From a bacterium (GTDB taxonomy: Bacteria; Bdellovibrionota_C; UBA2361; RFPC01): 64,000 bases of DNA. The stretch covers positions 33,756-97,755 of the forward strand of contig JAUIIO010000007.1 in the NCBI GenBank assembly GCA_030431715.1, given 5' to 3'. Below the pieces are notes generated by a model. That model did not search any database. It had not been told where the DNA came from and saw nothing but the letters and a program-made list of their open reading frames with translations. The position numbers and the translations under genes were made by a program. Shown in pieces: positions 15,497-54,668 of the stretch (within the stretch, counting starts at the first letter, position 1; each line of letters begins with the position of its first letter).

Positions 15497-16657
15497 TCAA
15501 TCAATAATTCCATCTGTGTACTTGCGAATGAATGCAAGATTGTCTGGAGAGGTTATGTTTGCCCATCTTGAGATGTCAGAGCGTTCATAGCCGGGTAGTG
15601 CACAATTATAAGCGTCACCATTTGATACTATCCCCGCCAGTACCCACTGCGAATCGCGCCATACTGCGAGTGGTCCGCCGGAGTCTCCGTAGCAGGTATT
15701 TCCTTTTGTAATATCTTGTGAGTTATATACAACATCAATCCCGTCGTCCTCTACTCTCGTTAGGGTGTTTTGTGTCCCTCGTAGCTGGCGATACTGATAT
15801 GTTTCACTCGCTCCGAATCCAGCAAATACAGCAGATTCACCTCTTTGAAGATCGTTTTGAGTAAGTATCTGAATGATATTTGTTTGAATGCTATCCTCTA
15901 AGTAGAGGATAGCTATATCGTTTTCTTCGCCATTTCTATATTTGGGGTGCATGACACAACCTGAGACCGCTCTCCTGATTCCAGTACCATTGGTTACAGA
16001 AAGCTGTTCACATGAGATACCTTCCACACAGTGGGCTGCTGTGAGAATGACCTTTTCAGCAATTACGTTCCCTGTACAGTATTGATTGCCACGAAAGTCT
16101 ATTGGAACAATCGGAGTATCATTGAAATTACATACTGCACCATTAACGATACGGAGATGACCATTTTTAGTATACCTAGGGTCTTCTTGAGCGCTGTAGG
16201 CGGTTGTACCAAATGCTTCACAGACATCTGAGAAGAGCGGGTTGTTGTAACCATAGTCTTCATATCGACACGAGGACTCTTGATACGATTGGCAACGGCG
16301 AATTCCTTTCTGTACTTTTCGTAAAATACTGGCATCCGATATTGTGCGTAGCACTATGCTTCGATGACCTTTGCGTCTGGCTCTTGAGCGTTCGCGCTGA
16401 ACCTTTCGGAACTCATTCTTTGTAGATCTCTTGGCTCTTCGAAATGTAGTGCTTTCCTGCAAACTATCAACAAGCTCTCCTCTGCATCCGTTAGAACTTT
16501 TATATTGACGACAAGAGTACATGAGCCCTTCGGGACCGTAGGGTATATATGGTACTTGTGATAAGACGGGCTGCGAGAAAATAAATTGCGCTAGTATTGT
16601 AGCGCTCAAAAGAAGAATACCGGCGTTCTTAAACATAGAGAGTGGCCTCAGTAGCAA
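15497..16657 (-). CDS. trypsin-like serine protease with signal peptide (peptidase S1 family)
   Basis: Signal peptide. Catalytic His motif LTAAHCV and catalytic Ser motif GDSGGPL. Long pro-region with a polybasic RRKGHR segment. Confidence 0.85.
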   Translation of the reverse strand: MLLRPLSMFKNAGILLLSATILAQFIFSQPVLSQVPYIPYGPEGLMYSCRQYKSSNGCRGELVDSLQESTTFRRAKRSTKNEFRKVQRERSRARRKGHRSIVLRTISDASILRKVQKGIRRCQSYQESSCRYEDYGYNNPLFSDVCEAFGTTAYSAQEDPRYTKNGHLRIVNGAVCNFNDTPIVPIDFRGNQYCTGNVIAEKVILTAAHCVEGISCEQLSVTNGTGIRRAVSGCVMHPKYRNGEENDIAILYLEDSIQTNIIQILTQNDLQRGESAVFAGFGASETYQYRQLRGTQNTLTRVEDDGIDVVYNSQDITKGNTCYGDSGGPLAVWRDSQWVLAGIVSNGDAYNCALPGYERSDISRWANITSPDNLAFIRKYTDGIID

Positions 16658-16958: not shown

Positions 16959-17147
16959 ATGCATATTGCCCTTATTGAATCAGCCGAGAAGACACACGCA
17001 ATAAACATGGTCCAGAAGTTCGCCAGTTCTTTTCTTACTGGCTTTCTCTCTGCGCTTACCCTTGGGAGCCTTGTCTCTGTTCCAGACTATGGATTTTTGG
17101 GTGGATTGGTTCAGGAATTCGCCGCATACATATACGCGACACTTTAA
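16959..17147 (+). CDS. small hydrophobic protein (62 aa)
   Basis: AAAGGAG SD 7 nt upstream of the ATG. Followed by a stem-loop terminator. One hydrophobic segment. Confidence 0.3.
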   Translation: MHIALIESAEKTHAINMVQKFASSFLTGFLSALTLGSLVSVPDYGFLGGLVQEFAAYIYATL

Positions 17148-17167
17148 GTACTGACGTGGAGTGGTTG

Positions 17168-17204
17168 GGCAGAGACGTCCTTGTCTCTGCCGCATATTGT
17201 TTTG
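17168..17204. terminator. stem-loop terminator between convergent genes
   Basis: Stem GGCAGAGAC / GTCTCTGCC with a 6-nt loop (gtcctt), followed by a T-rich run gcatattgttttg. Confidence 0.45.
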
Positions 17205-17212
17205 AAATAACC

Positions 17213-17713
17213 TTATTGTAGCGGTATTTTGTCAAAGCGGAACTCTGCCGTGCGAAAGTCGCCGCCTCGTGGCCGCCCCTTGTAGTGGAGTCGGGCTGAG
17301 ACGTGTTGGAGCTCGTTGACGCCGGGCTTTGTGCCGTACACGTCTAATCTTACGAGCCACTTTCGTTCATCGTAGCGAGACTTTCGCCACTCGGTTTTGA
17401 ACCTGCCCTTTATTGGCCACAATTCACTTAGACCGTAAACGAGCTCAAGGCTTGGATTCAAGGCGCTCACCGGAAAGCCTCGTTCCGGAACAACTTCAAA
17501 GTAGAGTGTGACCATAGTGGGTACAACCGGATCTCGTTTTGCTCTAACAAATCTTAGAGAAAGTTGCTCACGGCGCTTTACAGCACGGCTTGAGACAGCT
17601 TGCGGATCGGTTAATGTAGGGCTACTTGATCTCTTTGCTGCATCCGATCTCTCAGCGCAAACAAAGAGAGAGAGAAACACCGCGAGAGTCGCTGTGACTT
17701 CCTTACCAAACAT
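17213..17713 (-). CDS. signal-peptide basic hypothetical protein (166 aa)
   Basis: Signal peptide MFGKEVTATLAVFLSLFVCAERSDA. SD AGGAGG upstream. Confidence 0.4.
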   Translation of the reverse strand: MFGKEVTATLAVFLSLFVCAERSDAAKRSSSPTLTDPQAVSSRAVKRREQLSLRFVRAKRDPVVPTMVTLYFEVVPERGFPVSALNPSLELVYGLSELWPIKGRFKTEWRKSRYDERKWLVRLDVYGTKPGVNELQHVSARLHYKGRPRGGDFRTAEFRFDKIPLQ

Positions 17714-17792
17714 GTCAAACCTCCTGAAAGGACCTGTAGAAAAAACGGGTCCTCACTATACCTATCGCTTAAGAATATTCAAATAGCTTGCT

Positions 17793-18167
17793 TTATTTTT
17801 TTAGCGGAGGTCTGCCGAAACGAGTTCGATACGTATTTACTTTATCTAAGATGGAATCAGTAAGTATATAAGATAGTGCTTTCTTCTTGCCAGGAAGGGA
17901 TGTTAGCAATATGCCTAGAGCAATCGTAAGTAGCCCCTGACCGGGGATAAAGAGCATAATAATTCCTGCAAGTAGGATAACTCCTCCAAGTAAGTTTGTG
18001 AAAAGTGTTAAAAAAACCTTCCATGCAAGTGAGCGTTGTCGTTGGTCTGATTTTTCATCTGTTTCGCACAGGTAATCCTCGGGGAGTAGCAGAAGGGCAA
18101 GCGGTGGAAGGAGTAGCGTAATAATGAATAAACCGGCAGTGAGCGCGGCGAGCTGTGTCTCGTTCAT
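17793..18167 (-). CDS. small membrane protein, PGPGW-like (YbhN-position partner of cls)
   Basis: Two to three transmembrane helices with an IPGQGLLTIALGILLTSLPGKKK motif. Stop/start overlaps the cls gene. Confidence 0.4.
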   Translation of the reverse strand: MNETQLAALTAGLFIITLLLPPLALLLLPEDYLCETDEKSDQRQRSLAWKVFLTLFTNLLGGVILLAGIIMLFIPGQGLLTIALGILLTSLPGKKKALSYILTDSILDKVNTYRTRFGRPPLKK

Positions 18168-19621
18168 TAGAGTACTGGAGAAAAAAGCCTAGCTACCTGT
18201 TGTGGAATCATTTTTAGATAAGGAGTCTGAAGAAGATGCTCTGATATCTCGTGCGACTTCTTTTTTTCACCTTTAAATATCTCTTGAAGCTCTAGAACTT
18301 TTCTCTCGTTGGCTATAAAGACACTCTCTTCAAAATTTAGGTGAAGGGAACGATTATCGAGGTTGGCACTTCCCACAGAAGCAAAATCATCATCAACGAT
18401 AATAAGCTTTTGGTGAATAAAACCTAGCGAATATTCAAAGATGCGAGCGCCAGACTGAGCGAGCTCTCGTGCTGAAGCCCTCGTTGCGAGGTGTGCTATT
18501 CGAAGGTCTGTTGTCTCTGGAATGATAAGTTGTACATCTATACCTCGAAGTGCTGCCAGCTGAAGAGTGGACATAATAACATCATCGGGAGTGAAGTAGG
18601 GGGTTGTGAGCCAGAGTCTTTTTTTCGCAATACGTATTAAGTTCATGAGATAGAGTGAGCAGTTATCGATCTCATCAATAGGGCCTGTTGCCAGAGGAAG
18701 AAGTGATATGTCTTCATCGTGAATTTGTGATTCCCACTTAAAATCAGGCAGGGAGTCTGCCCCCCAGTACCAATCCTGTGCCAATGTACGCTGAATCGGG
18801 ATAACAGCTGGTCCCTGTATGATAATGCTTAAATCTTGCAGGAAGCCACACTGAGAATCGCCCGTTCGATAGTTATCTCCGAGATTGTGGCCTCCAATAG
18901 AAGCCCATGCTCCATCAACGACCATGAGCTTTCGGTGATTTCTAAAATTAAGACGAAATCTATTGGTAAGTCCTCTATTCGTACAAAACTCATTTATTTC
19001 TACACCTGCCTCCCTGAGTTCTTCAAGATAGCTATGAGAAAGATTCATGCTTCCTACCTGATCGTACATCAGATAGACGCGTACTCCTTCTGCTGCTTTT
19101 TCTATAAGACGTTTTTTAAGCTCTTTGCCAGTTTCGTCCTCATATATGATATAAAAGTGTATAAGAATGTAGTCTTTTGCTTCACTGATCTTTTGAAAAA
19201 ATTTCTCAAAAAACTCTTCTCCGTCGGGATGTATCGTGAGGGTGTTCCCGTGCGTCAGTGGCCAATCAGCAATTTTTTCTAAGAATTGAAGGTCAAAGAC
19301 ATATTCCTCCGGTATTTCATTTTGTGAGCTTCTTATAGCATCAAGCGTACTCCGAGTGAGATCGGTAAATGCGTTTCTGGAATTACTTATCTTTCCTTTG
19401 TAACTCTTAAATTTTCTTGGACCAAAAGCCCAGTACGCGGGAAGAGCAAAGTAGGGGAAAAGGGTAAGAGTGATTGCCCAGGCTACTGCTCCTTGAGCAG
19501 ACCGCTGATGCATGGTCGCATCAATTGCGTGTAGTACTCCTACTATATGTATTATTGGTATAAAGAGTGTAGTCCAGAGCCAGCCAGGCCAGCTAATGGT
19601 GGTAGCAATCCCTTCAATCAT
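18167..19621 (-). CDS. cls: cardiolipin synthase (phospholipase D family, two HKD motifs)
   Basis: N-terminal transmembrane helices. HKD motifs HRKLMVVDG and HQKLIIVDD...GSANLDNRS. Confidence 0.9.
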   Translation of the reverse strand: MIEGIATTISWPGWLWTTLFIPIIHIVGVLHAIDATMHQRSAQGAVAWAITLTLFPYFALPAYWAFGPRKFKSYKGKISNSRNAFTDLTRSTLDAIRSSQNEIPEEYVFDLQFLEKIADWPLTHGNTLTIHPDGEEFFEKFFQKISEAKDYILIHFYIIYEDETGKELKKRLIEKAAEGVRVYLMYDQVGSMNLSHSYLEELREAGVEINEFCTNRGLTNRFRLNFRNHRKLMVVDGAWASIGGHNLGDNYRTGDSQCGFLQDLSIIIQGPAVIPIQRTLAQDWYWGADSLPDFKWESQIHDEDISLLPLATGPIDEIDNCSLYLMNLIRIAKKRLWLTTPYFTPDDVIMSTLQLAALRGIDVQLIIPETTDLRIAHLATRASARELAQSGARIFEYSLGFIHQKLIIVDDDFASVGSANLDNRSLHLNFEESVFIANERKVLELQEIFKGEKKKSHEISEHLLQTPYLKMIPQQVARLFSPVL

Positions 19622-23660: not shown

Positions 23661-25522
23661 GTGGCAGTAACAGTAGGATCGAACATAGCCTCTCTTCGGG
23701 CACAGAGACAGCTCAATCGCAGCTCGAACTCTCTTTCAAGTGTGTTTGAACGCCTTTCTTCCGGACAACGAATTAACAGAGCATCTGATGACGCGGCAGG
23801 TCTTGCCATCTCTGAATCACTTAACGTGGATCGAAAAGTTTATACGCAGGGAATGCGCAATCTCAATGATGGGATATCTCTGCTAAACATCGCTGATTCA
23901 GCAATTGCGGAACTTTCGAGTATCGTCATACGAATACAAGAGCTAGCAGAGCAGGCGGCCAATGGCTCACTTTCTCACACCCAACGAGACTCTCTTGATA
24001 GTGAAGCGCAGCAATTAAAAGATGAGTACTTCCGTATCTCACGTTCTACTGATTTTAATAATTTAAATCTCTTTGACGGATCAATTGAACAAGGTGTTCG
24101 GATTCAAGGAGGATATGGCATAGATGGCTCAATCTCCTCTTCGCTTGGTGGAGCGATGGGGGATGGAACGCTACAGGCCACTAATACACTTTCCCGTGGT
24201 AATGGTGGAGGAGAATCAGAGCTAAGAGACATTGATGGTGATGGGGTGCTTGATCTCATCGCTACGGGCTACGCTTATAGCACAGGTACAAATGGAACCA
24301 TCACCGTTTCACTGGGTAATGGTGATGGGACGTTTGGTGCAATGGAACGTTTGGCTCGAATGTTCCCACTGGCGCAAGTGCGTCTCTTTCCATCGCTGAC
24401 CTTAACAACGACGGAAAGCTCGATGTTGCTACAAGCTACTTCGGTGATGTCTCAATCTTACTTGGAAATGGAGACGGAACCTTCGGAGCAGAGCTAACGA
24501 TAAGCACTCCAGCAACTCAAGATCTGTCACTCGCAGATCTTAATAGTGATGGTTTTGTAGATCTAACGGTAGCAGAACGAACAACAGGCAATGTGATTAC
24601 ATTTCTTGGTAATGGAGATGGCACATTTCAAAGTGGCCAAACATTCTCAGCTACCGGAGGCTCCTCTGGCCTTGCCCTTGATGACATAGATGGTGACGGT
24701 GTCATAGATATTGTAGCTGTTAGTAACGAAGTAACTACGCTTCTCGGGAATGGTGATGGCACATTTCAAAGTGCGATTACGTATGCTACTGGTACAGGAT
24801 CTCAAGAGGTAACCATCGGTGATTTGAACAATGATGGTATACTGGATATAGCCACTGCCAACTTTTCAAGTGATGATGTTAGCGTACTTCTTGGTAACGG
24901 TGACGGATCGTTTCAAAGTGCCGTGACTTACGCTGCCGGCAACGGTGCATACGACATTCTGTTTGAAGATATGAATAGTGATGGAACTCTAGATATCCTT
25001 ACCAAGAATTCACTGGATAATTCTATTACGATATTACTTGGAGGTGGTGATGGAACATTCGAAAGTGCCGTATCATATGCGGCGCCCGGTGTGCATGGCT
25101 ACTCAGTTACAAGTGGGGATGTAAATAACGATGGCGTCATTGATATTGTCGCTGGGACTGCTTACAATCATAATGTATTGCTGGGAAATACTCGTGTAGG
25201 TATTGCACCCATTTTAGATTTTTCCCTTTCTACACAGGCTGACGCCCTTCAGGCCCTTGCTCCGTTAAGCCGCAAACTTGACTCGCTTTCTGCCCAGAGA
25301 GGTGTCATTGGAGCGTTTGAGTCACGACTTGCCTCTGCATTGAACACATTGCAGGCTACTAGTGAAAATTACGCTCTGGCTGAATCTAGGATTCGAGATG
25401 CTGATATCGCATTTGAATCCTCTCAGCTCACACGACTAAATATCTTGCAACAGGCCGGAGCGGCAGTGCTCGGGCAGGCAAATCAGCAGCCTGATATTGC
25501 CCTTCAACTACTGACATCATAG
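23661..25522 (+). pseudogene. fliC: flagellin with FG-GAP/VCBS beta-propeller-like central domain, interrupted by a +2 frameshift near 24335-24355 (or sequencing error)
   Basis: GTG start. N-terminal flagellin D0/D1 region (IASLRAQRQLNRSSNSLSSVFERLSSGQRINRASDDAAGLAISE...LNIADSAIAELSSIVIRIQELAEQAANGS) in ORF 23661..24497. C-terminal flagellin domain (SRLASALNTLQATSENYALAESRIRDADIAFESSQLTRLNILQQAGAAVLGQANQQPDIALQLL) in ORF 24593..25522. About eight D(L/I)NNDGxxDI...LLGNGDGTF repeats continue across the break in the +2 frame. Confidence 0.8.
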
Positions 25523-32338: not shown

Positions 32339-32465
32339 AATCTGTTTTATTACCGTAGCTTAGGCGGAGTATCTCATTTTTTCTGCGGTTGTAATCTATT
32401 GCTTAAGCATTGTTCCACTACTGACGACTTAACCCTTAGGGAATAAGAAGTATCGGGAGGATGTT

Positions 32466-34667
32466 GTGGATCCCACGAAGTTAGTTGTTCGTTCGCTTGT
32501 CGATCTTGGCGAGCTTGAGAATATGCCGTCTGATGAGGCAATTTACTCTCAGTCATGTGGTGCTGTTCGCACCTTAGCAGATCTTGGACTTATTGATGAA
32601 CAGAAAGCGCTTAAGGCGCTTAGTGCAAAGCTCTACGTTGACTACGTTGATCTAGACAGACTTCCAGAGGGAAAAAGGTTAGAGCCGCAGCACTTTGAAG
32701 AACTAAATCGGGAAGTTCTCGCGCGTTATAAGCTTTTTCCACTTTGGAAAGAGAAAGAGAGCTATGTTGTAGCTACTGCCAATCCGTTTGATATGGAAGG
32801 TATTAACCTTCTTGAATTTGCCTTGGGGAAAAGGGTTCAGATCGTTTTGGCAGAGGAATCAAAGATTCAAAGTAGCCTTACAGAGTATTTTCCAGATGAT
32901 ATTTCACAATTTGATATCCTTAGCGATCTTGAGAGCGAAGACTACGTTGAAATTCTGGGAAAAAATAGCGCAACAGAGTCAGATGATATTAATGCCAGTG
33001 AAATTGATGCGCCACCGATTGTAAGGCTCGCGAATAAGATTATCGCTGATGCCTATGACAAGCGAGCAAGTGATATACATATTGAGCCTGGCCAAGATAA
33101 GATTGAGATTCGCTTCCGCATCGATGGGGTAATGCATAATTTCCTCGAAATACCGAAACGACTTCAGCCATATCTCCTTTCTCGTATTAAGCTTATTGCT
33201 GGCATGGATATCGCCGAAAAGCGAAAACCTCAAGATGGCCGGCTAAGAGTGCGGGTAAATCAAGTCCCGATCGATATGCGAGCCTCAAGTGTGCCAACAG
33301 CATTTGGAGAAAAGATGGTGCTGCGGATACTTCGATCAGACGCAGCGAAGGTCACTTTTAGTGAACTCGGGGTTTCTCCTCCAATAGAGAAAAAGCTTAA
33401 TAGTGCTTTAGACAAAAGAGGAAAACTTTTTCTCGTTACTGGTCCAACCGGTTCTGGTAAGACCACGATGCTCTATACGTTCTTAAACTATCTTCGAGAT
33501 GGAAAAACAAATATCCAGACGGTAGAAGATCCAATTGAATATCGCGTGCCCGGAATTAGCCAGATTCAGGTTAATAATGCCACGGGAGTTACATTTGCCA
33601 GCGCCCTGCGTTCTGTACTGCGTCAGGATCCAGATATTATTCTAATTGGTGAAATACGGGATGAAGAGACGGCATGTATCGCTTTACAAGCTGCTCAGAC
33701 CGGACATCTAGTCATATCGACTCTCCATACAAACGACGCGCCAAGTGCTGTGACGCGGCTTATGAACCTTGGTGTGGATCCGTTTCTTCTTGGCTCGAGC
33801 TTGGAAGGGGTTCTCGCACAAAGACTCATTCGCAAAACGTGTGTTGAATGTCAGCGACCTCTGACTGACATGCAGCTTGCTAAATACGGAGCATATATAG
33901 AGCATTATTCAATTGACCCGGCAACTCTCTATGCGGGTACGGGGTGTGAGGAATGTCACTACTCTGGCTACATGGGGCGGACAGGGCTCTATAGTTACCT
34001 GCAGGTTGATGGCAGGATAGAGGAGTGCATATACCGATCTGCTCCGACCTCGGAAATTGTTCATACGGCTTTACAAAGAGATTATACCGATCTTCACTTC
34101 GCAGCAATTGAGGCGGTTAAGAGTGGCATTACCACGTTTGATGAGGTGAAGGCATATCTGGTGCTACCTGAGATTACTGAAGTTGCTCATGTGGCTTCTC
34201 AGCTAAAAGAGGTTCAGGCTGTGGAGGAGGTGCATGAGCAGGAGGAAGAGCAGGTGCAGGAGGAAGAGCAGGAGCCTGCGCGAAATGATGGTATTGAGAA
34301 AACTAAGGTTTTACTTGTTGAGGATGACGAGGATACGCGGAGTGTTCTTTCGCTTCTCTTGCAGCGAGAGATGTACGAGGTTATTGAAGCTGAGAACGGA
34401 GCAGAGGGGCTACAGAAGGTCTATGAGCATAACCCCGGAGTGGTCATCTGTGATATGATGATGCCTGTAATGGATGGTAAAGAGTTTTTAAAGAAGATGC
34501 ATTCTCGCAAAGAAACAAAAAGTATCCCTGTTGTTTTCCTTACAGCAATTGATTCGGAAGAAAATGAGCTCGAACTCCTTGAGCTTGGTGCGCAGGATTT
34601 TGTCAGCAAGACTACCTCATCGAGCATTATGTTGACTCGTATCCGTAATATTTTAGAGCGACAGTAG
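32466..34667 (+). CDS. type II secretion / type IV pilus ATPase (GspE/PilB family) with C-terminal CheY-like receiver domain
   Basis: GTG start after a GGGAGG SD. T2SSE_N-like N-terminal domain. Walker A GPTGSGKTT, Asp box, His box. Tetracysteine CVECQ...CEECHYSG. C-terminal KVLLVEDDEDTRSVLSLLLQ...ICDMMMPVMDG...PVVFLTA receiver domain. Confidence 0.85.
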   Translation: MDPTKLVVRSLVDLGELENMPSDEAIYSQSCGAVRTLADLGLIDEQKALKALSAKLYVDYVDLDRLPEGKRLEPQHFEELNREVLARYKLFPLWKEKESYVVATANPFDMEGINLLEFALGKRVQIVLAEESKIQSSLTEYFPDDISQFDILSDLESEDYVEILGKNSATESDDINASEIDAPPIVRLANKIIADAYDKRASDIHIEPGQDKIEIRFRIDGVMHNFLEIPKRLQPYLLSRIKLIAGMDIAEKRKPQDGRLRVRVNQVPIDMRASSVPTAFGEKMVLRILRSDAAKVTFSELGVSPPIEKKLNSALDKRGKLFLVTGPTGSGKTTMLYTFLNYLRDGKTNIQTVEDPIEYRVPGISQIQVNNATGVTFASALRSVLRQDPDIILIGEIRDEETACIALQAAQTGHLVISTLHTNDAPSAVTRLMNLGVDPFLLGSSLEGVLAQRLIRKTCVECQRPLTDMQLAKYGAYIEHYSIDPATLYAGTGCEECHYSGYMGRTGLYSYLQVDGRIEECIYRSAPTSEIVHTALQRDYTDLHFAAIEAVKSGITTFDEVKAYLVLPEITEVAHVASQLKEVQAVEEVHEQEEEQVQEEEQEPARNDGIEKTKVLLVEDDEDTRSVLSLLLQREMYEVIEAENGAEGLQKVYEHNPGVVICDMMMPVMDGKEFLKKMHSRKETKSIPVVFLTAIDSEENELELLELGAQDFVSKTTSSSIMLTRIRNILERQ

Positions 34668-34716
34668 CTTGACCACTATTATTTGGACATCGTCTTAAGA
34701 CAGAGCTATAGTCTCT

Positions 34717-36600
34717 GTGGAAGTGATTATGTTCGATAAGAGGTCTGAAGTTCCTGTACCTGATGAAGCTGGCGATAGTCCTGTTAGAGATAGTCACGCC
34801 CTGAATATTCCTACACAACACTCCTATTTATCACCTCTTAGCTCATCACCACTTGGAAGCGTTACTCTGGCTACAGCGCTCCTGCTCTTTGGAAATGGGG
34901 ACGGTGCATCTGCGCAGAATGTTGATAGGAATATGGACAACGCTCCCGGCCCAACGCCTGAGGAGGTCTTCCTAGCTGATGTTAAGACTGTTTCAGAGTA
35001 CTTAACCGATCTCGATGCCTCACGTTACAATGTTAGGGAACACGCACAGGAAGAGCTCACATTTCACACTCCGTGGAGCACGGAGGAACTTAAAGCACTT
35101 TTACGTTCTTCCGTTAGCGATTCTCTTGAGGTGCGAGCAAGAGTGTCAGAGATCCTGACTGAGATAGAAGAAGGGGAACTTCCTAGTACCTTTATTGATT
35201 TTCTAGAGAGTCGTACAGCGAAGCCAAGAGCGAGAGAGCTGGAGCTTTCTCTGGTTGAACCAGTTGTTTCTAAGCTGGCCCTTCTTTATGGCCGGGCGAC
35301 CTTTCAAACAAGAGAAGAGAAGCTTTTTGTACATTTCGCTTCGCCGGGGAAACAGGCAGATTCTTTTTACAGAATGTATAGTGCCGGATTCTTCGAGGAT
35401 CCGAAAAAAGAGCGCTCCAGTGAAGAGCGAGCGCTCCGTGCTATGAGATCTATCTCTCAGCTCCGTAGTGATGCCGATTTCTTTTTAAAGAACCTGAGTC
35501 GTCTGGAAGAAGCCGGGATACGTATTGAGATTCATGACAATGAATTAAGAAAGCCCACCTATTATATACAGGACTTCTTAATCTTGACTGCCAGCGGCAT
35601 CGCAAATAGTCGTGATGAAGAGTATCAACAAACTTGTAATGATCTACTTCAGGTTTTATCCATTACCGCGGATCGTCTTTCGAGTAGTTCCGATACGGAG
35701 ACTGATCCTGAAGCTATCACAAAGACTGTGAACTCAAGGGCAAGGGCACTAAATGATGTCCTTGGAAAGTTTCGAGAGTGTTTCTCTGACCGCTCAGATG
35801 AAGAGGTGGTAAACTTTAAAAAAGCGTTTATTCATTTTGCAGAGCTCTGTGACCTCGATAGGGAGGAGGGCCTTCTCGCCCTGTTTTCGAAGCTCTCTGA
35901 TACGAACGAAGAATCCTTTGAGTTGGGGACTCAACGAATGTGGGTCGTGTATCACTCTGCAAATCTTACGCTCTTACCTGAAACAAGAAATGCAAAAGCG
36001 ACCAAGCCTGTACTGGAAGATCTCAAGGAGGCATTTGAGACTGGATCAGAGACCCGTGGGATAGGCTATGTTTCACTTCTGAAGAGATACGATAAGGCTG
36101 TACGCGAAGGGCTTACTCTTGATGACCCCTACACGTCAAAACTGCTAAATGCGATTCATGTCCAAACAGCCGCGGGACGTCTTCATTTTATCGATTTGAG
36201 TCGTGATGTGCTTGATGCCCTTACGGTAACAAGTGCTTTTATGGTTGAGGAAAATAGCCCGGCATTTCCTGCAGAGCTCTATGATACGTTTATTCGTCAG
36301 CTCAATTCGAGCTCGCCAGAGAATGCAAATAATACGCATACGACGATTGAACTCCATAAACGTGTTTTAACGGAGCTTTCAACTCTCCCAATCCCTTGCT
36401 CGGATCAATCCGTGCAGCATTTTGCAGCTATTGCTGCAGATGCGGCTTGTGGAAACCATGCTCAGGAGCAGTTAAACTACCTGAGGTCGCTTCTTACTGA
36501 ATGGAGTCGCGATGCGAGTGAGGAAAAAGATCTCTCTCAACTGAGAAAGCGCTTACAGGATTTTGAGCTGGTTCCTTTTAACCAGCGCTTAAAGAATTAA
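34717..36600 (+). CDS. hypothetical protein (627 aa), possible N-terminal signal after an acidic leader
   Basis: Intact ORF 50 nt downstream of the ATPase gene. No recognisable domain. Helical repeat-like composition. Confidence 0.45.
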   Translation: MEVIMFDKRSEVPVPDEAGDSPVRDSHALNIPTQHSYLSPLSSSPLGSVTLATALLLFGNGDGASAQNVDRNMDNAPGPTPEEVFLADVKTVSEYLTDLDASRYNVREHAQEELTFHTPWSTEELKALLRSSVSDSLEVRARVSEILTEIEEGELPSTFIDFLESRTAKPRARELELSLVEPVVSKLALLYGRATFQTREEKLFVHFASPGKQADSFYRMYSAGFFEDPKKERSSEERALRAMRSISQLRSDADFFLKNLSRLEEAGIRIEIHDNELRKPTYYIQDFLILTASGIANSRDEEYQQTCNDLLQVLSITADRLSSSSDTETDPEAITKTVNSRARALNDVLGKFRECFSDRSDEEVVNFKKAFIHFAELCDLDREEGLLALFSKLSDTNEESFELGTQRMWVVYHSANLTLLPETRNAKATKPVLEDLKEAFETGSETRGIGYVSLLKRYDKAVREGLTLDDPYTSKLLNAIHVQTAAGRLHFIDLSRDVLDALTVTSAFMVEENSPAFPAELYDTFIRQLNSSSPENANNTHTTIELHKRVLTELSTLPIPCSDQSVQHFAAIAADAACGNHAQEQLNYLRSLLTEWSRDASEEKDLSQLRKRLQDFELVPFNQRLKN

Positions 36601-45548: not shown

Positions 45549-47186
45549 TTACCTCAGGGGGTTATTTGTACGGTGGATGAGTTTTTCTATTCGTTTGAGA
45601 ATAAGCTTTTTCTTTGTGCCTTTTGAGCAGTAGTCATCGGCTCCAGCTGCGAGCAAATTGTACTCAGTATCTTCATCGTTAATGGCTGTGAGCATGAGTA
45701 CGGGAAGGTGAGTTCCTTTCGGTGAATTTCGTAGCTCTTTTACGAAATCTTCACCGTTCATGACGGGCATCATGAGATCACATACTATGAGATTTGTAGA
45801 GTCGTTCTTTAGCGCATGTAGAGCCTCTTTTCCATTTGTCGCAGTTTGAATTTCATATCCTTCCTTCTCAAGGACCATGGTAAGAATATCGAGCTGATCC
45901 TGATTGTCTTCAACTAAAAGAATTTTTGGTTTTACTGCCTTCGCTTTTGTTTCCTTAAAGAAGTACTCGTTGTCCAAGTTTTCAAGTTGTTCGCGTAGTT
46001 CAGCTTCAATAGGATTTTCTATATCTTGTCTTCCGGATCGATGAATAGCGGCGGCAAGAAATCCACTGCTAATACGTTTTACGGCCCCTAGAACCTCCTC
46101 GAAAGTTGTTACCTTTTGTTCAACCTTGGTGAGGCCATCTTCTAGCAGACTGCGTGCACCAGAGCGTGATGCAAGTTCAGATATCTGCGCAGCACTAGCA
46201 CCGTGCTCAAGGAGTTTATGAAGTTCAGGATTTATCTCAAGAGCACTTTGGAGATCTATCCAGCCCTGATACGCGCTGTGCTCACACACCTCACAACCTC
46301 TTCCAACCATATATTCGAAGTCTGAATCTGGTTGTAGTATTGGTGGTAGCGTTGTAATGAACTCACTTGAGATAGGTGTTCTTTTGGAGCATTTCTTACA
46401 AGATTGCCTTACAGAGCGACTCATAAATGAGGCAACAAGTAAGTTATAGAATCTCTTAATCGCTTCTTTCTCGTCTCGAAAGAGATTCCCCGTTTGCAAT
46501 ATAGCCTCAACAGAATCATCGCTATCGACGCCGAGAAGTATCAGGGATTCTTCTGCAAGTTCAAGTACTCGGGTGAGGTCTTGTGCTGTGCGAGCTTTAT
46601 AGCAGATTCGAGCATCGGGCCGGAGTGAATAGCACGTACGCAAAGCATCTTTTCCTGGCGTTCGTTCTCTATCAAAGTTACAGAGCACGATACCTTTTGG
46701 AGCAGCAATGATCTGTCCCAGTACGTTTGTATTATACTCAGCCTGTTGTTTTTGGAGGGTTTGAAGATCCGATTTTTCAGTTCTGATATCTTTAAAGAGG
46801 AGAACAGCCTCTTTGGTGTTCATCCGCTTCTGTCTCTCAACGGTGCAGCAAGCATAGGTATTAGCTTTGAGTTTCATGCGCAGCGTTTTGGGAAGAGAAG
46901 CGCTGGTCGCTCTGGTGTTGAGAGTTGTAGGTTCCGCAATTGTCTTTAGCTCAACGGAAGTTAGAATACTCTTCCAAAATGCCTGTGAGCAGGCGAACTC
47001 GCGTGAACTTAACTTCTCTCCTTTAAAGAATGTGAGGTGAAGAGCCTTTTCTTCCTTAAGGCTTAACTCTAATTTTGTTGCTTCTCCGCGGGTGGCCTCT
47101 TCTATGATGCGTGGGAGAAATTGCGAGATAGCGGTGCTCTCGATAGTGAGACTGCCTGAGCTCTGATTGTTTGTATTCGTATCCAT
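45549..47186 (-). CDS. degenerate GspE/PilB-like domain (Walker A lost) fused to C-terminal receiver domain; paralogue of 32466..34667
   Basis: The C-terminal tetracysteine region CKKCSKR...CEVCEHSAYQGW and helices TTFEEVL are retained. The Walker A position reads NFDRERTPGKDALRT. The C-terminal receiver ILLVEDNQDQLDILTMVL...VCDLMMPVMNGEDF...PVLMLTA is highly similar to the receiver of the 733-aa ATPase. Confidence 0.7.
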   Translation of the reverse strand: MDTNTNNQSSGSLTIESTAISQFLPRIIEEATRGEATKLELSLKEEKALHLTFFKGEKLSSREFACSQAFWKSILTSVELKTIAEPTTLNTRATSASLPKTLRMKLKANTYACCTVERQKRMNTKEAVLLFKDIRTEKSDLQTLQKQQAEYNTNVLGQIIAAPKGIVLCNFDRERTPGKDALRTCYSLRPDARICYKARTAQDLTRVLELAEESLILLGVDSDDSVEAILQTGNLFRDEKEAIKRFYNLLVASFMSRSVRQSCKKCSKRTPISSEFITTLPPILQPDSDFEYMVGRGCEVCEHSAYQGWIDLQSALEINPELHKLLEHGASAAQISELASRSGARSLLEDGLTKVEQKVTTFEEVLGAVKRISSGFLAAAIHRSGRQDIENPIEAELREQLENLDNEYFFKETKAKAVKPKILLVEDNQDQLDILTMVLEKEGYEIQTATNGKEALHALKNDSTNLIVCDLMMPVMNGEDFVKELRNSPKGTHLPVLMLTAINDEDTEYNLLAAGADDYCSKGTKKKLILKRIEKLIHRTNNPLR

Positions 47187-48879: not shown

Positions 48880-49815
48880 ATGGCAGAGAATGTTCAGGAG
48901 ATTAAAGATCGCGCGATGACGCTTTCCTTGCTAGTCGCAATCTTTATGATTGTGGGGAAGTTTCTAGCATACTGGCTCTCTGGGAGTACCGCAGTTCTCT
49001 CAGATGCTCTTGAATCATTGGTGCATATCGTGGCTACTGGCTTTAGTGCTTATTGCGTTCGTTTTGCCTCTCGTCCTCCAGATGAGTCACATCTTTTTGG
49101 CCACGGTAAAATTGTGACCTTATCTATTGGCATAGAGGGTGGATTAATTTTTGTTACAGCATTATACATTGCAGTCAAAGCTTTGATGGCGATGTATTTC
49201 GGACCTGATTTACATGAATTAGGAATTGCTCTCTTTCTGACCGGTGCTTTTGGGGTGATTAACTTATTCCTCGGTACCTACCTTGTGAAGACCGGAAGAC
49301 GACTCAACGCACCAGCTATTATTGCTAATGGGAAACATGTTCTTACAGATATGTGGACAAGTGTTGTAGTTGTGGGAGGTCTTTTCCTTGTTTGGGTTTC
49401 GGGCGTTAGTCTTCTAGATCCCATTGCAGCTCTCCTTGCTGCAGCATGGATCTTGTACTCAGCTATGAAGATTTTAAAAGATGCAATTCAGGAGATGATG
49501 GATGAAGCGCAACCTGAAGATACAGAACGCTTAGTTACCCTCCTCGATTCTCTTGTAAGTAAAGGTGAGATCCATGAATACCACCAGCTAAGGCACCGAA
49601 GGATAAATGGGGAGCTTTCCATAGAGATTCATCTGCTTTTCCCAGATAATGACTCTGTTTTTGATGCGCACCATGAGGCGACCCATGTTGAACAGGTGCT
49701 CAAAGAGAGCTTTGGTCAGAATACACGAATCTTAACACATATAGAGCCACTTACGCACAGTGAAGCTCACCCTGAGGAATTTGAAGAGGGGATCGATCCG
49801 CTCTCTCAGCTTTGA
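48880..49815 (+). CDS. cation diffusion facilitator (CDF) family metal efflux transporter
   Basis: Six transmembrane helices. ALESLVHIVATG...HLFGHGKI signature. C-terminal cytoplasmic domain. Confidence 0.85.
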   Translation: MAENVQEIKDRAMTLSLLVAIFMIVGKFLAYWLSGSTAVLSDALESLVHIVATGFSAYCVRFASRPPDESHLFGHGKIVTLSIGIEGGLIFVTALYIAVKALMAMYFGPDLHELGIALFLTGAFGVINLFLGTYLVKTGRRLNAPAIIANGKHVLTDMWTSVVVVGGLFLVWVSGVSLLDPIAALLAAAWILYSAMKILKDAIQEMMDEAQPEDTERLVTLLDSLVSKGEIHEYHQLRHRRINGELSIEIHLLFPDNDSVFDAHHEATHVEQVLKESFGQNTRILTHIEPLTHSEAHPEEFEEGIDPLSQL

Positions 49816-50915
49816 GGATGTTGTTCGGATCCAAGAATATCAGTGATCATTTTCGTGGTCTCAGGAAAGTTCAGTGGCCATGAAAAACAGTGAAGCCCCT
49901 TCTGGCCTGTAGCGCTCGTTAGAGTCTTGTTGCAGTGTGGCGATGAGATGATAACTGGCGAAGTGGGATCTATGCTTTGAAACTTTGGGAACCACTCTAG
50001 AATATTTTCACAGTCACTTTTTCCGTACAGAAAAATCAGTGCGATCTTATCAGATTGCTGAGCGTACCAGTCGTATGCAAGCTCAAAACTTGCAAATGAA
50101 GTTATATTGATCTCCGCTTGCTGTAAGAAAGGACTGAGAGAGGAGTGAAGGCTTTCATCTGGATCAACAAGAAGTATATTCGCGTTTTCACTGATAATAG
50201 TGGTCTCTGGCTTTCTTGTAAGGAGTGAGACAAGAGGAAAGTCTAGGGAGAAAGAGCTTCCGATTCCTTCCTTAGAAGTAATGTGAAGAGTGGCATCGTG
50301 ACTCTCGAGTATTTTGCGAACATTTGTGAGTCCTTGGCCTCTTATGAGCCCGGTGCCTTTGGTTGAGTAAGCGCCTTTGTCGATTTTAAATAGGGTCTCC
50401 TCGCTCATGCCACAGCCTGTATCTGTAATCACGAGCTCCGCTCGGTTTTCTTCCTCGTGACTTGAGAGTTCTAGCGTTATCTTGCCAGATTCAGATATTG
50501 CTTGCTCAGCATTTACAAGAAGATTTAAAATTACACGTTTAAGCTGCACGCTATTTGCGTTGACACATATGCCAGCCTCTAGCTTAAAGTGAAGCGATAC
50601 CTCTTTTCTTAGACTTTCCTTAAAGAACTGACAGGCTTCTTCAGTTATTGCGCTGAGGTTTACAAGCTTCTGATTTAGTCCACGAGTAGTATCATAGAGC
50701 TGTTTTACGAGTTCACTTGCATCACTTATGCCACTCAGTAGGAGCTTGAGTCTCTTGTAATTACTTGAGCTCTTCTCAGTGTTGCGCAGGAGTGATTGAA
50801 GCGCACCGGTACAGCTCATAAGAGAATTGTTAATGTCGTGAGCGAGTGAGCGTATGCGGGAAGATTCCTCCCTATCGCACTCATTGGTGCTCCCCTGCGG
50901 GTCTGCTTTTTTCAT
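49806..50915 (-). CDS. cytoplasmic hybrid histidine kinase (HisKA + HATPase_c + degenerate C-terminal receiver-like domain)
   Basis: H-box SLAHDINNSLMS. N box and G boxes (VITDTGCGMSEE, GTGLIRGQGL). No transmembrane or sensor domain. C-terminal ILLVDPDESL... receiver-like region. Confidence 0.7.
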   Translation of the reverse strand: MKKADPQGSTNECDREESSRIRSLAHDINNSLMSCTGALQSLLRNTEKSSSNYKRLKLLLSGISDASELVKQLYDTTRGLNQKLVNLSAITEEACQFFKESLRKEVSLHFKLEAGICVNANSVQLKRVILNLLVNAEQAISESGKITLELSSHEEENRAELVITDTGCGMSEETLFKIDKGAYSTKGTGLIRGQGLTNVRKILESHDATLHITSKEGIGSSFSLDFPLVSLLTRKPETTIISENANILLVDPDESLHSSLSPFLQQAEINITSFASFELAYDWYAQQSDKIALIFLYGKSDCENILEWFPKFQSIDPTSPVIISSPHCNKTLTSATGQKGLHCFSWPLNFPETTKMITDILGSEQHPQS

Positions 50916-53624: not shown

Positions 53625-54668
53625 ATGAAGCAAAATATCATTTTAGTTCTTTTCGGTTTAGTACTTGGATTGGCGGCTGTCGGAGTTTCGTATCCACTGC
53701 TTATGTCTTATATCCAATCGGTTCCGGAAGGGGCCTCTTTTGAATCTGTTGAAGATTTTCAGCGAGCGATGCTTCAGCGAGATGATCGGGATAGACAAGA
53801 AGGGGAGAATGTTAGTCTGCGAACGATTATCACTCCACATCCTGATGAGCAGGTCATGTATGATCTCCTGCCCGATCAACAGGTGCTCTTTCAAAACGTT
53901 CCTGTGCGTATAAATAGTTGTGGCATGAGGGGCCCTGAGGTCGACGTATCACGGCCAGACAAGACTTATAGAATTGCATTCCTAGGAGACTCCTTCACTT
54001 TTGGCTGGGGGGTAAATGAGGATGAGGCATTTCCTGAGGTGACAGCAAAGATTTTGCAGAAGAAGTTTCCGAATATTCATGTTGAAGCCTTAAACTTTGG
54101 CGTGCCAGGATATTCCACCTTTCAAGAGGTGGCGCTCTTTAAGGACAAAGCGCTTGATTTTAAGCCTGATGCCGTTGTGGTCTATTTCGTTCAGAATGAT
54201 TTTGGATTGCCATTCTTTATTAAGAACGTGCACCAGCCCGGAAGTGTTGTGACGAGCAGAGAGTTCTCCAAATCTGCGTGGGCTCGAGATGATAGCAAGA
54301 TAGAGGAGCAGGAGCATGAGCTTAATTCATGGCTTAATCCGAACAATGCGTTATTGTCTCTTGCCAAGCTCTTACGTAAAAATGGTATCGATCTCTATGT
54401 CGCGATGAATCCGCACCCGAGTTGGAAAAAGGATTTTAAGCGTCTAAAAAAAGCGCGTAAGAATAACTGGATAACATTTATTGGAATGCGGGGAAATTTT
54501 TTACGTATAATGAAAGCACGTGGCATCAAAGCAGATCAGCTGTCTCTTGCTCATGATCCTCACCCAAGTCCAGTCAAGCATCGTATTCTTGCCGATATAC
54601 TTGCATCAGAGCTCTTTCCATCTGTTGATACCTTTAATAATTCTGTTGCTCACTTAAGTCGTAGTTGA
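53625..54668 (+). CDS. SGNH/GDSL-family hydrolase with N-terminal anchor
   Basis: Block I YRIAFLGDSFTFGWGV with the nucleophile Ser. N-terminal transmembrane helix. Confidence 0.7.
   Translation: MKQNIILVLFGLVLGLAAVGVSYPLLMSYIQSVPEGASFESVEDFQRAMLQRDDRDRQEGENVSLRTIITPHPDEQVMYDLLPDQQVLFQNVPVRINSCGMRGPEVDVSRPDKTYRIAFLGDSFTFGWGVNEDEAFPEVTAKILQKKFPNIHVEALNFGVPGYSTFQEVALFKDKALDFKPDAVVVYFVQNDFGLPFFIKNVHQPGSVVTSREFSKSAWARDDSKIEEQEHELNSWLNPNNALLSLAKLLRKNGIDLYVAMNPHPSWKKDFKRLKKARKNNWITFIGMRGNFLRIMKARGIKADQLSLAHDPHPSPVKHRILADILASELFPSVDTFNNSVAHLSRS

Follow-up and report, generated by a model that had tools for sequence, protein, structure and literature searches.

The stretch of DNA analyzed here, 64,000 nucleotides (nt) of contig JAUIIO010000007.1 from a bacterium of the Bdellovibrionota_C lineage (hereafter the window), encodes at 32466-34667 on the forward strand a 733-residue protein in which a PilB/GspE-type motor ATPase is joined through a disordered tether to a C-terminal response-regulator receiver (REC) domain. 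On balance, we think it probable that the protein drives pilus extension and that phosphorylation of its fused receiver gates the motor in cis. An earlier note on the sequence had claimed the fusion of motor and receiver, and the claim is borne out: Pfam recognizes MshEN, T2SSE, and Response_reg domains within one open reading frame (ORF), all of the motifs that the note named were found at confirmed coordinates (Table 1), and the matches lie far above chance. We hold the identities assigned to the individual domains with high confidence. The ATPase-REC fusion is new as an uncharacterized variant and is in our view of moderate interest, its main value lying in the single-chain model that it offers and in the unexpected, catalytically dead paralog that the same window encodes.

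A PilB-like motor

The ORF opens with a GTG codon and closes with TAG, and the GTG start is credible because the N-terminal pattern MDP..L(V/I)..L is common to the protein (MDPTKLV...) and its two closest homologs, P0002 and P0003 (MDPARLL... and MDPIKAL...). Pfam places MshEN (PF05157) at residues 68-146 with 54.3 bits against a cutoff of 23.1, T2SSE (PF00437) at residues 181-562 with 423 bits (E = 9e-127), and Response_reg (PF00072) at residues 615-726 with 95.7 bits (E = 2.5e-27), the last spanning profile positions 1-110 of 111. With a mean predicted local distance difference test (pLDDT) score of 90.1, the AlphaFold2 model calculated from a 105-sequence alignment contains four N-terminal helices (residues 3-13, 23-27, 33-39, and 45-56; pLDDT about 90-97), an alpha/beta N1 unit (residues 74-141), a floppy linker (residues 146-176), and an N2 plus RecA-like core with its zinc subdomain (residues 184-564). 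The ATPase core is intact, as the earlier note had read it: the Walker A and B motifs, the Asp and His boxes, and the four cysteines are all present and are invariant in 106 relatives, whose alignment, representing the fused family, underlies every conservation count given here. The motor is predicted to be catalytically competent, of the hexamer type, and of the type IVa pilus extension type.

Comparison of the model with the Protein Data Bank (PDB) by Foldseek put Thermus PilF and Geobacter PilB on top (5tsg, 5tsh, 5oiu), with template modeling scores of 0.92-0.93 normalized to the query, root-mean-square deviations of 2.2-2.7 Å, and 42-45% identity; GspE/EpsE ranked below them, followed by BfpD, PilT, and DotB. 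A sequence search of the PDB also gave Geobacter PilB as the best match (5zfr, E = 4e-118) and aligned Myxococcus PilB from residue 31, and its GspE matches started late, at residue 131-171. The best-scoring NCBIfam model was that of PilB (TIGR02538), at 536.1 bits over residues 28-563, where the equivalog cutoff is 675.65; the GspE model (TIGR02533) scored 511.8 bits, aligned only from residue 84, and likewise did not reach its cutoff of 630.25. TadA/CpaF was absent among the 25 families listed, and the top NCBIfam and PDB matches were to PilB, GspE, and PilF. To judge by these matches, the protein is an ATPase of the PilB/GspE superfamily with a PilB-like architecture, neither an orthodox PilB nor an orthodox GspE.

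The closeness of the two NCBIfam scores, both of them below cutoff, lends some weight to an alternative in which the ATPase serves a type II secretion system (T2SS) in the manner of GspE, or another non-pilus fiber, and in which phosphorylation would gate secretion. GspE and EpsE structures are strong matches to the protein, and the window is rich in secreted hydrolases, including a reprolysin-like protease, a trypsin, and lipases. We nonetheless consider this alternative improbable, as alignment of the N-terminal helical unit and N1 with PilB, PilF, and MshE-type proteins begins at about residue 10-40, whereas that with GspE begins only at residue 84-131, and PilB and PilF head both the structural and the sequence matches. 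Two of the independent fusions described below adjoin prepilin-type genes, although T2SS pseudopilins share the same motif, and no gsp genes lie near the gene in the window.

A complete receiver on a variable tether

In the AlphaFold2 model, residues 614-732 form a textbook (beta-alpha)5 receiver, its five strands alternating with five helices, at pLDDT 91-98. All five active-site residues of true receivers are present (E619, D620, D663, T693, and K715), and by this measure the domain lacks none of the residues expected of a phosphorylatable receiver. The phospho-acceptor Asp that the earlier note had read in the sequence is present on alignment and is conserved in 99 of the 106 family members; a Glu in alpha4 (E701) and an Arg in alpha5 (R725) are also invariant or nearly so across the family. 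Mean column conservation is 0.59 in the receiver and 0.62 in the ATPase domain, against 0.13 in the linker between them, and purifying selection on the receiver is therefore as strong as that on the motor.

Between motor and receiver, the model has a short helix following the core and then disorder over residues 575-607 (pLDDT <50). About 45 residues long in this protein, the tether ranges across the family from 15 to 104 residues (median 34) and is on average 13% acidic and 11% basic. The acidic linker remarked on earlier is thus real in this protein, where the run is present, and is not a feature of the family, in which the segment is unconserved and scarcely more acidic than basic. A six-member monophyletic subclade (P0058, P0059, P0081, P0083, P0084, and P0085), which includes one Oligoflexia protein, carries the coupled substitutions D663G and K715R with intact ATPase motifs, and by these substitutions its receiver, unlike that of the protein in the window, has turned into a pseudo-receiver.

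A monophyletic family and repeated fusion

A frameshift, a missed stop codon, or an assembly artefact joining two genes can be excluded as the origin of the fusion, since the identical protein (P0001), with the same neighbors, occurs on an independent Logan assembly of run SRR24442557, and the same single-ORF architecture recurs in >100 clusters from different samples. The broader proposition that the fusion is such an artefact, or that the receiver of this protein is a decayed, non-functional pseudo-receiver, can be given practically no credence: the earlier note raised it as a formal possibility, nothing specific speaks for it, although one subclade does have a pseudo-receiver, and it runs counter both to the recurrence just described and to the REC active-site residues, all of which are present in the protein and conserved family-wide.

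The >100 clusters, recovered by searching 5.8 billion clustered proteins, are 680-780 residues long, share 40-58% identity, and are almost all annotated MshEN+T2SSE+Response_reg; the few members with names, at 43-53% identity, come from Bdellovibrionales, Bdellovibrionota, Oligoflexia, or 'Deltaproteobacteria' metagenome-assembled genomes (MAGs). When 1.84 billion representatives (50% identity) were searched exhaustively with a HMMER profile, 128 of the best 150 matches had a receiver C-terminal to Walker A; this count is a lower bound, as matches continued beyond the last one listed, at 664 bits. A neighbor-joining tree of 185 ATPase cores (385 columns) gathers the 106 fused proteins into a single clade that contains no other sequence and is separate from the 79 PilB-like proteins, an arbitrary sample from many phyla, that served as outgroup and control. 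The fused family is monophyletic, widely distributed, and uncharacterized, and belongs to uncultured Bdellovibrionota/Oligoflexia-like bacteria. Some of its members are further elaborated: one (P0249) carries three tandem receivers behind the ATPase, others (P0320, P0326, P0331, P0351, and P0352, with P0354 also listed as elaborated) have a double zinc ribbon (DZR) between motor and receiver, and some such proteins reach about 1,500 residues through C-terminal tails, without annotation, that measure up to about 750 residues.

C-terminal receivers also occur on three ATPases of the outgroup sample, from a Deltaproteobacteria MAG (L008), Omnitrophota (L009), and Frankiaceae (L016), all of which the tree places outside the fused clade, and the fusion therefore arose repeatedly. 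Such recurrent, independent fusion points to a functional link between REC signaling and the PilB-type motor. In the Omnitrophota locus, a gene with a prepilin N-methylation motif precedes the fused gene, a PAS-PAS-HisKA-HATPase_c kinase gene starts 3 nt past its stop codon, and another receiver gene follows further downstream. By analogy, this locus and that of the Deltaproteobacteria MAG support the view that ordinary histidine kinases may provide the input to such receivers and that pilin-type fibers may be what such motors serve. The architecture is already visible in automated annotation, for example as 'PilB-like protein/CheY-like' at JGI, and both of its domains are textbook; a search of the full-text open-access literature turned up no publication on a receiver fused to an ATPase of the PilB/GspE type, although absence there is no proof.

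Control of the motor by its receiver

PilB-type ATPases form hexamers that engage the PilC platform, and receivers switch upon Asp phosphorylation by way of Thr and aromatic residues, usually signaling through the alpha4-beta5-alpha5 face. Phosphorylation-dependent control of the motor seems the most reasonable reading of a protein that combines the two; receiver phosphorylation, the direction and mode of regulation, and the type IV pilus as the machine served are what we infer here. Asp663 would be phosphorylated by a histidine kinase or CheA encoded elsewhere, and the receiver would then switch through Thr693, Phe712, and Lys715, altering the contacts that its alpha4-beta5-alpha5 face makes with the motor ring, the pilus platform, or adjacent receivers. 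Pilus extension would in this way be switched on or off at the level of hexamer assembly, of ATP turnover, or of engagement with the machine. The fused family would then represent an internalized regulator, the cis counterpart of the free proteins PixG, PilG, and DrdR, which act on PilB in trans.

Several observations weigh against such gating. A tether so variable and unconserved speaks against docking in a fixed geometry; the D663G/K715R subclade keeps its receiver, so that at least some of what the receiver does may not depend on phosphorylation; the ATPase falls below both the PilB and the GspE equivalog cutoffs and is thus not an orthodox PilB; and the gene is an orphan that stands alone, with neither its machine nor its phosphodonor readable from context.

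Some of these same features suit the chief rival explanation, which is not exclusive with gating and which we regard as unlikely without dismissing it: the receiver would act mainly as a localization or docking module that, by way of its phosphorylation or just of the REC surface, directs the motor to a cell pole or to a partner and leaves its intrinsic ATPase activity unchanged. A long, variable, unconserved tether would serve as a 'fishing line' for reaching partners, the retention of REC in a subclade that lacks the acceptor Asp is what docking would lead one to expect, and the conservation of E701 and R725 both in the family and in the dead paralog suggests a conserved protein-protein interface. 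Phosphorylated PixG and PilG, moreover, act largely via localization (PMC11181946; 10.64898/2026.09.03.749161). Against this rival, no partner is identifiable from the gene context, and DrdR provides the example of a REC protein able to raise PilB ATPase activity directly (PMC13507683). We continue to favor phosphorylation-dependent gating in cis.

Relation to known regulators of pilus motors

The closest known motors are the PilB proteins of Geobacter metallireducens and G. sulfurreducens (5TSG/5TSH/5ZFR/6OLJ), the PilB of Myxococcus xanthus, and the PilF protein of Thermus, which share with the fused ATPase the N1-N2-ATPase-zinc layout, the catalytic motifs, and the tetracysteine site; the fused ATPase differs in its C-terminal receiver on a disordered tether and in not being encoded with pilT, pilC, and pilMNOPQ. 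A likeness of another kind is found in the enhancer-binding proteins of the NtrC/DctD type, in which REC also controls a ring-forming P-loop ATPase in cis, although there the ATPase belongs to the AAA+ rather than the PilB/GspE superfamily, REC is N-terminal rather than C-terminal, and the output is transcription rather than fiber assembly. Vibrio cholerae MshE likewise has a signal-input domain built into an extension motor and shares MshEN and the N-terminal helices (PMC5013675), whereas in the fused ATPase the input domain, a phospho-receiver, sits at the other terminus, and the two cyclic di-GMP (c-di-GMP) motifs are absent.

Free receivers that relay two-component or chemosensory signals to extension ATPases, as the fused receiver would, include PixG/PixE, PilG/PilH, and DrdR. 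In Synechocystis, only the phosphorylated form of PixG interacts with PilB1 (PMC11181946); in P. aeruginosa, phosphorylated PilG has been proposed to recruit and activate PilB (bioRxiv 10.64898/2026.09.03.749161); and in Xanthomonas the ATPase activity of both PilB and PilT increases when the REC-only protein DrdR, which binds them, is present (PMC13507683). These CheY-like regulators are separate proteins acting in trans, with PATAN as the output domain in PixG, whereas the receiver described here is covalently attached, one to each motor subunit, and has no chemosensory genes linked to it.

MshEN is known to occur with REC, among other domains (PMC5013675). Within the same phylum-level group, Bd2402 of Bdellovibrio bacteriovorus combines REC with a PilB-derived MshEN_N and binds c-di-GMP (PMC5013675, supplement); it lacks an ATPase and has a well-conserved c-di-GMP site, whereas the protein in the window has the ATPase and lacks the site. 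The MshEN proteins listed for strain HD100 (Bd1509, Bd1596, and Bd2402) include no ATPase-REC fusion (PMC5013675, supplement).

How the motor of type IV pili receives chemosensory and two-component signals continues to be a matter of debate, and the interface and mechanism of PilG, PixG, and DrdR are unresolved. A widespread and repeatedly arisen fusion of receiver and PilB-type motor offers 'Rosetta-stone' evidence for direct receiver-to-motor communication, as well as a convenient natural single-polypeptide system for its structural and biochemical study. In predatory Bdellovibrionota, type IV pili are required for prey invasion, and a motor of this kind could there link a sensed signal to pilus deployment.

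The N-terminal region and c-di-GMP

The earlier note had also suggested that the N-terminal domain might be an MshEN-like c-di-GMP sensor. The MshEN site consists of two tandem 24-residue motifs, RLGxx(L/V/I)(L/V/I)xxG(L/V/I)(L/V/I)xxxxLxxxLxxQ, separated by a 5-residue spacer, and a relaxed form has been used for PHI-BLAST, [RKPN]hGxxhhxx[GAS]hhxxxxhxxxhxx[QNKRYWST] (PMC5013675). The scaffold itself is present, as the PF05157 match and the four high-confidence N-terminal helices attest, and the N-terminal sequence that the note had quoted does form an MshEN_N-like helical unit; what that unit lacks is the binding motif. Searched as regular expressions, neither the strict nor the relaxed motif has a match in the family (0 of 106). 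When Gly10 is set to G15 and G41, which gives the best registers, position 1 is R, K, P, or N in 22/106 members for motif I and 3/106 for motif II, neither register has the essential Gly at position 3 in any member (0/106), and the spacer comprises 2 residues against the canonical 5. As a positive control, the relaxed motif was found in 22 of the 79 PilB-like outgroup proteins, twice in 9 of them, and in the strict form in 4, and the canonical Bdellovibrio PilB, Bd1509, begins LKIGETLVKQGLLKPDQLALAMEEQ, which fits the relaxed motif (PMC5013675, supplement). The sensor suggestion is not supported: we predict from these motif searches that canonical c-di-GMP binding by the N terminus is absent, and the Pfam label 'MshEN' must not be taken to mean c-di-GMP binding.

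Gene neighborhood

Three co-directional TadE/TadE/TadG-like genes, unusually large for their kind, stop 127 nt before the ATPase gene (Table 1), and the intervening gap holds no convincing terminator or sigma-70 promoter; terminator matches in the scan are all weak, and promoter-like sites are fewer than in shuffled sequence. This arrangement raises the possibility that the ATPase powers a fiber of the adjacent pseudopilins in a hybrid Tad-like module, and a complete Tad locus lies about 7.5 kilobases (kb) upstream of the fused ATPase P0021. We think this very unlikely. TadE/TadG-like genes are absent beside the fused ATPase in 7/7 relatives, and those in the window are therefore not a conserved association; Tad systems use a TadA/CpaF ATPase of their own, which is separately present on the P0021 contig; and the ATPase in the window is of the PilB/GspE type. 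The Tad ATPase, TadB/C, and secretin were not found beside the TadE/TadG-like genes in the 64-kb window.

Annotation of the large ORFs of the window likewise turned up no PilC/GspF, PilT, PilM-Q, pilin, prepilin peptidase, or chemosensory genes. In 7/7 relatives, on contigs of 24-896 kb, the fused ATPase has no pilus, secretion, or kinase genes beside it, pilT, pilC, pilMNOPQ, and pilin genes are absent within 10 kb, and the neighbors are unrelated housekeeping genes such as those for glutamine synthetase, topoisomerase, QueG, aconitase, and the flagellar hook. The next gene downstream in the window encodes a protein with no family match and may have its own promoter, as the 49-nt gap before it contains the best sigma-70-like site in the region.

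The only kinase in the window, a soluble histidine kinase, is encoded 15 kb from the fused ATPase and is a candidate phosphodonor by proximity only. Its 125-residue tail has a receiver-like start (NILLVDPDE) and is degenerate, without an acceptor Asp; on contig L088, a hybrid kinase with HATPase_c and Response_reg domains (17072-18673) occupies the syntenic position.

A catalytically dead paralog

A second gene, 11 kb from the first, encodes a 545-residue 'pseudo-ATPase-REC' in which the zinc subdomain and receiver of the motor are preserved without a working catalytic site. It matches the fused ATPase by BLASTP (E = 8e-38), and in an hhalign profile-profile comparison its residues 180-541 match residues 379-733 of the fused ATPase (E = 2e-54). 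Walker A is missing, the Walker B equivalent reads RPDARICYK, in which the Glu is lost, and the equivalent of the His box is EESLILLGVDSDD. Its E508 and R532 correspond to E701 and R725 of the fused ATPase, and the pair is invariant or nearly so in both families. The N-terminal helix-3-strand-helix order resembles N2, although similarity to the N2 of the fused ATPase is not above that of shuffled sequence (z = 0.8, -0.4), and the structural model, built on a 4-sequence alignment only, has a pLDDT of 57.

Only three relatives of the paralog are known, at 35-42% identity. One of them, P0127, comes from the same sample as the fused ATPase P0010 and sits in a gene block like that of the window (UDPGP, NTP-transferase, ABC-F, PNPOx, paralog, FtsJ ... 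cation efflux, hybrid histidine kinase, YceG), and the synteny is conserved in L088. We hypothesize, as a speculation to which we attach a low probability, that the window encodes a motor-embedded pair in which the dead paralog is a built-in antagonist of the active PilB-like motor-REC protein, giving switch-like, phosphorylation-controlled extension without a free CheY-like protein. The paralog might act, like PilH or PixH, as a phosphate sink that competes for the kinase. Alternatively, by means of the C-terminal and REC surfaces that the two proteins share, it might associate with the motor ring or become incorporated into it, thereby poisoning the ring.

Other features of the window

Table 1. 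Positions of the features discussed, in window coordinates unless another contig is named (aa, amino acids).
Feature	Position	Strand	Basis or remark
Whole gene, MshEN-T2SSE-Response_reg fusion, 733 aa	32466-34667	+	ORF list, Pfam, NCBIfam; identical protein P0001 in public data
Shine-Dalgarno-like GGGAGGA, 4 nt before GTG	32455-32461	+	Read from sequence
N-terminal four-helix unit, aa 1-56, MshEN_N-like, without c-di-GMP motifs	32466-32633	+	AlphaFold2 helices; motif test
MshEN match, aa 68-146, alpha/beta N1 (MshEN_C-type) subdomain	32667-32903	+	PF05157; aligned with residues 95-181 of Geobacter PilB
Flexible linker 1, aa 147-180, between N1 and N2	32904-33005	+	pLDDT <60; family conservation 0.26
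T2SSE core, aa 181-562: N2, RecA-like ATPase, zinc-binding C-terminal subdomain	33006-34151	+	PF00437, PDB sequence match, Foldseek
Walker A GPTGSGKT, aa 326-333	33441-33464	+	G326, P327, T328, G329, G331, K332 invariant, 106/106
Asp box EDPIE, aa 354-358	33525-33539	+	E354, P356, E358 invariant
Walker B DPDIILIGE, aa 388-396, catalytic Glu396	33627-33653	+	D388, P389, D390, G395, E396 invariant
His box TGHLVISTLHTN, aa 412-423	33699-33734	+	T412, G413, H414, V416, H421 invariant
Tetracysteine zinc site CVEC...CEEC, aa 459-497	33840-33956	+	C459, C462, C494, C497 in 106/106
Disordered tether, aa 566-611	34161-34298	+	pLDDT <50 for aa 575-607
Acidic run HEQEEEQVQEEEQEP, aa 590-604, inside tether	34233-34277	+	Sequence
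Receiver (REC) domain, aa 612-733	34299-34664	+	PF00072; AlphaFold2 topology; conservation
Acidic pair E619/D620	34320-34325	+	E/D619 106/106, D620 104/106
Phospho-acceptor D663 (ICDMMMPVMDG)	34452-34454	+	99/106
Switch Thr T693 (FLTA)	34542-34544	+	105/106
Switch aromatic F712, equivalent of CheY Tyr106	34599-34601	+	104/106
Active-site Lys K715 (VSK)	34608-34610	+	99/106, Arg in 7
TadE-like pseudopilin gene, 203 aa	27780-28391	+	Pfam; TadE, Tad, and Tad_C across the three genes
TadE-like pseudopilin gene, 600 aa	28381-30183	+	Pfam
TadG-like pseudopilin gene, 733 aa	30137-32338	+	Pfam
Sigma-70-like site, 10/12 (TGGACA, 17 nt, TATAGT)	34684-34712	+	Best in region; in 49-nt gap
627-aa protein, no family match	34717-36600	+	49 nt past ATPase gene
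Paralog, 545 aa	45549-47186	-	Pfam partial T2SSE (C-terminal subdomain only) and full Response_reg
Paralog zinc C-terminal subdomain	46089-46421	-	Four cysteines kept
Paralog receiver, canonical	45588-45923	-	Asp470 at 45777-45779; Asp, Thr, Lys kept
Soluble histidine kinase: H-box (SLAHDINNSL), HATPase_c	49806-50915	-	Pfam HisKA (weak) and HATPase_c
L008, Deltaproteobacteria MAG, locus with ATPase-REC of 734 aa	135-3852		Prepilin-type gene about 850 nt upstream
L009, Omnitrophota, locus with ATPase-REC of 962 aa	6724-15015		Pilin gene, ATPase-REC, PAS histidine kinase, REC gene
L016, Frankiaceae, ATPase-REC, 712 aa	3836-6136
L087, Rubrobacter, 1,091 aa	1724-4999		Receiver N-terminal to ATPase

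Elsewhere in the window, genes at 36926-40039, 15497-16657, 53625-54668, and 1218-2591 encode probable secreted hydrolases and adhesion-type proteins, namely a 1,037-residue reprolysin-like metalloprotease, a trypsin-like protease, a GDSL lipase, and a dockerin-containing protein. Taken with the many large ORFs that have no Pfam match, these genes fit a predatory, Bdellovibrionota-like genome. On the forward strand at 23661-25522, a flagellin gene with an internal insertion of FG-GAP repeats, which are beta-propeller-like, is split by a frameshift near 24335-24350: the first ORF (23661-24497) holds Flagellin_N and FG-GAP, and the second frame (24326-25522) holds four FG-GAP_3 repeats and Flagellin_C. 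The same split is present in the Logan assembly; the gene could be a pseudogene or undergo a programmed shift, or the split could stem from an error in sequencing.

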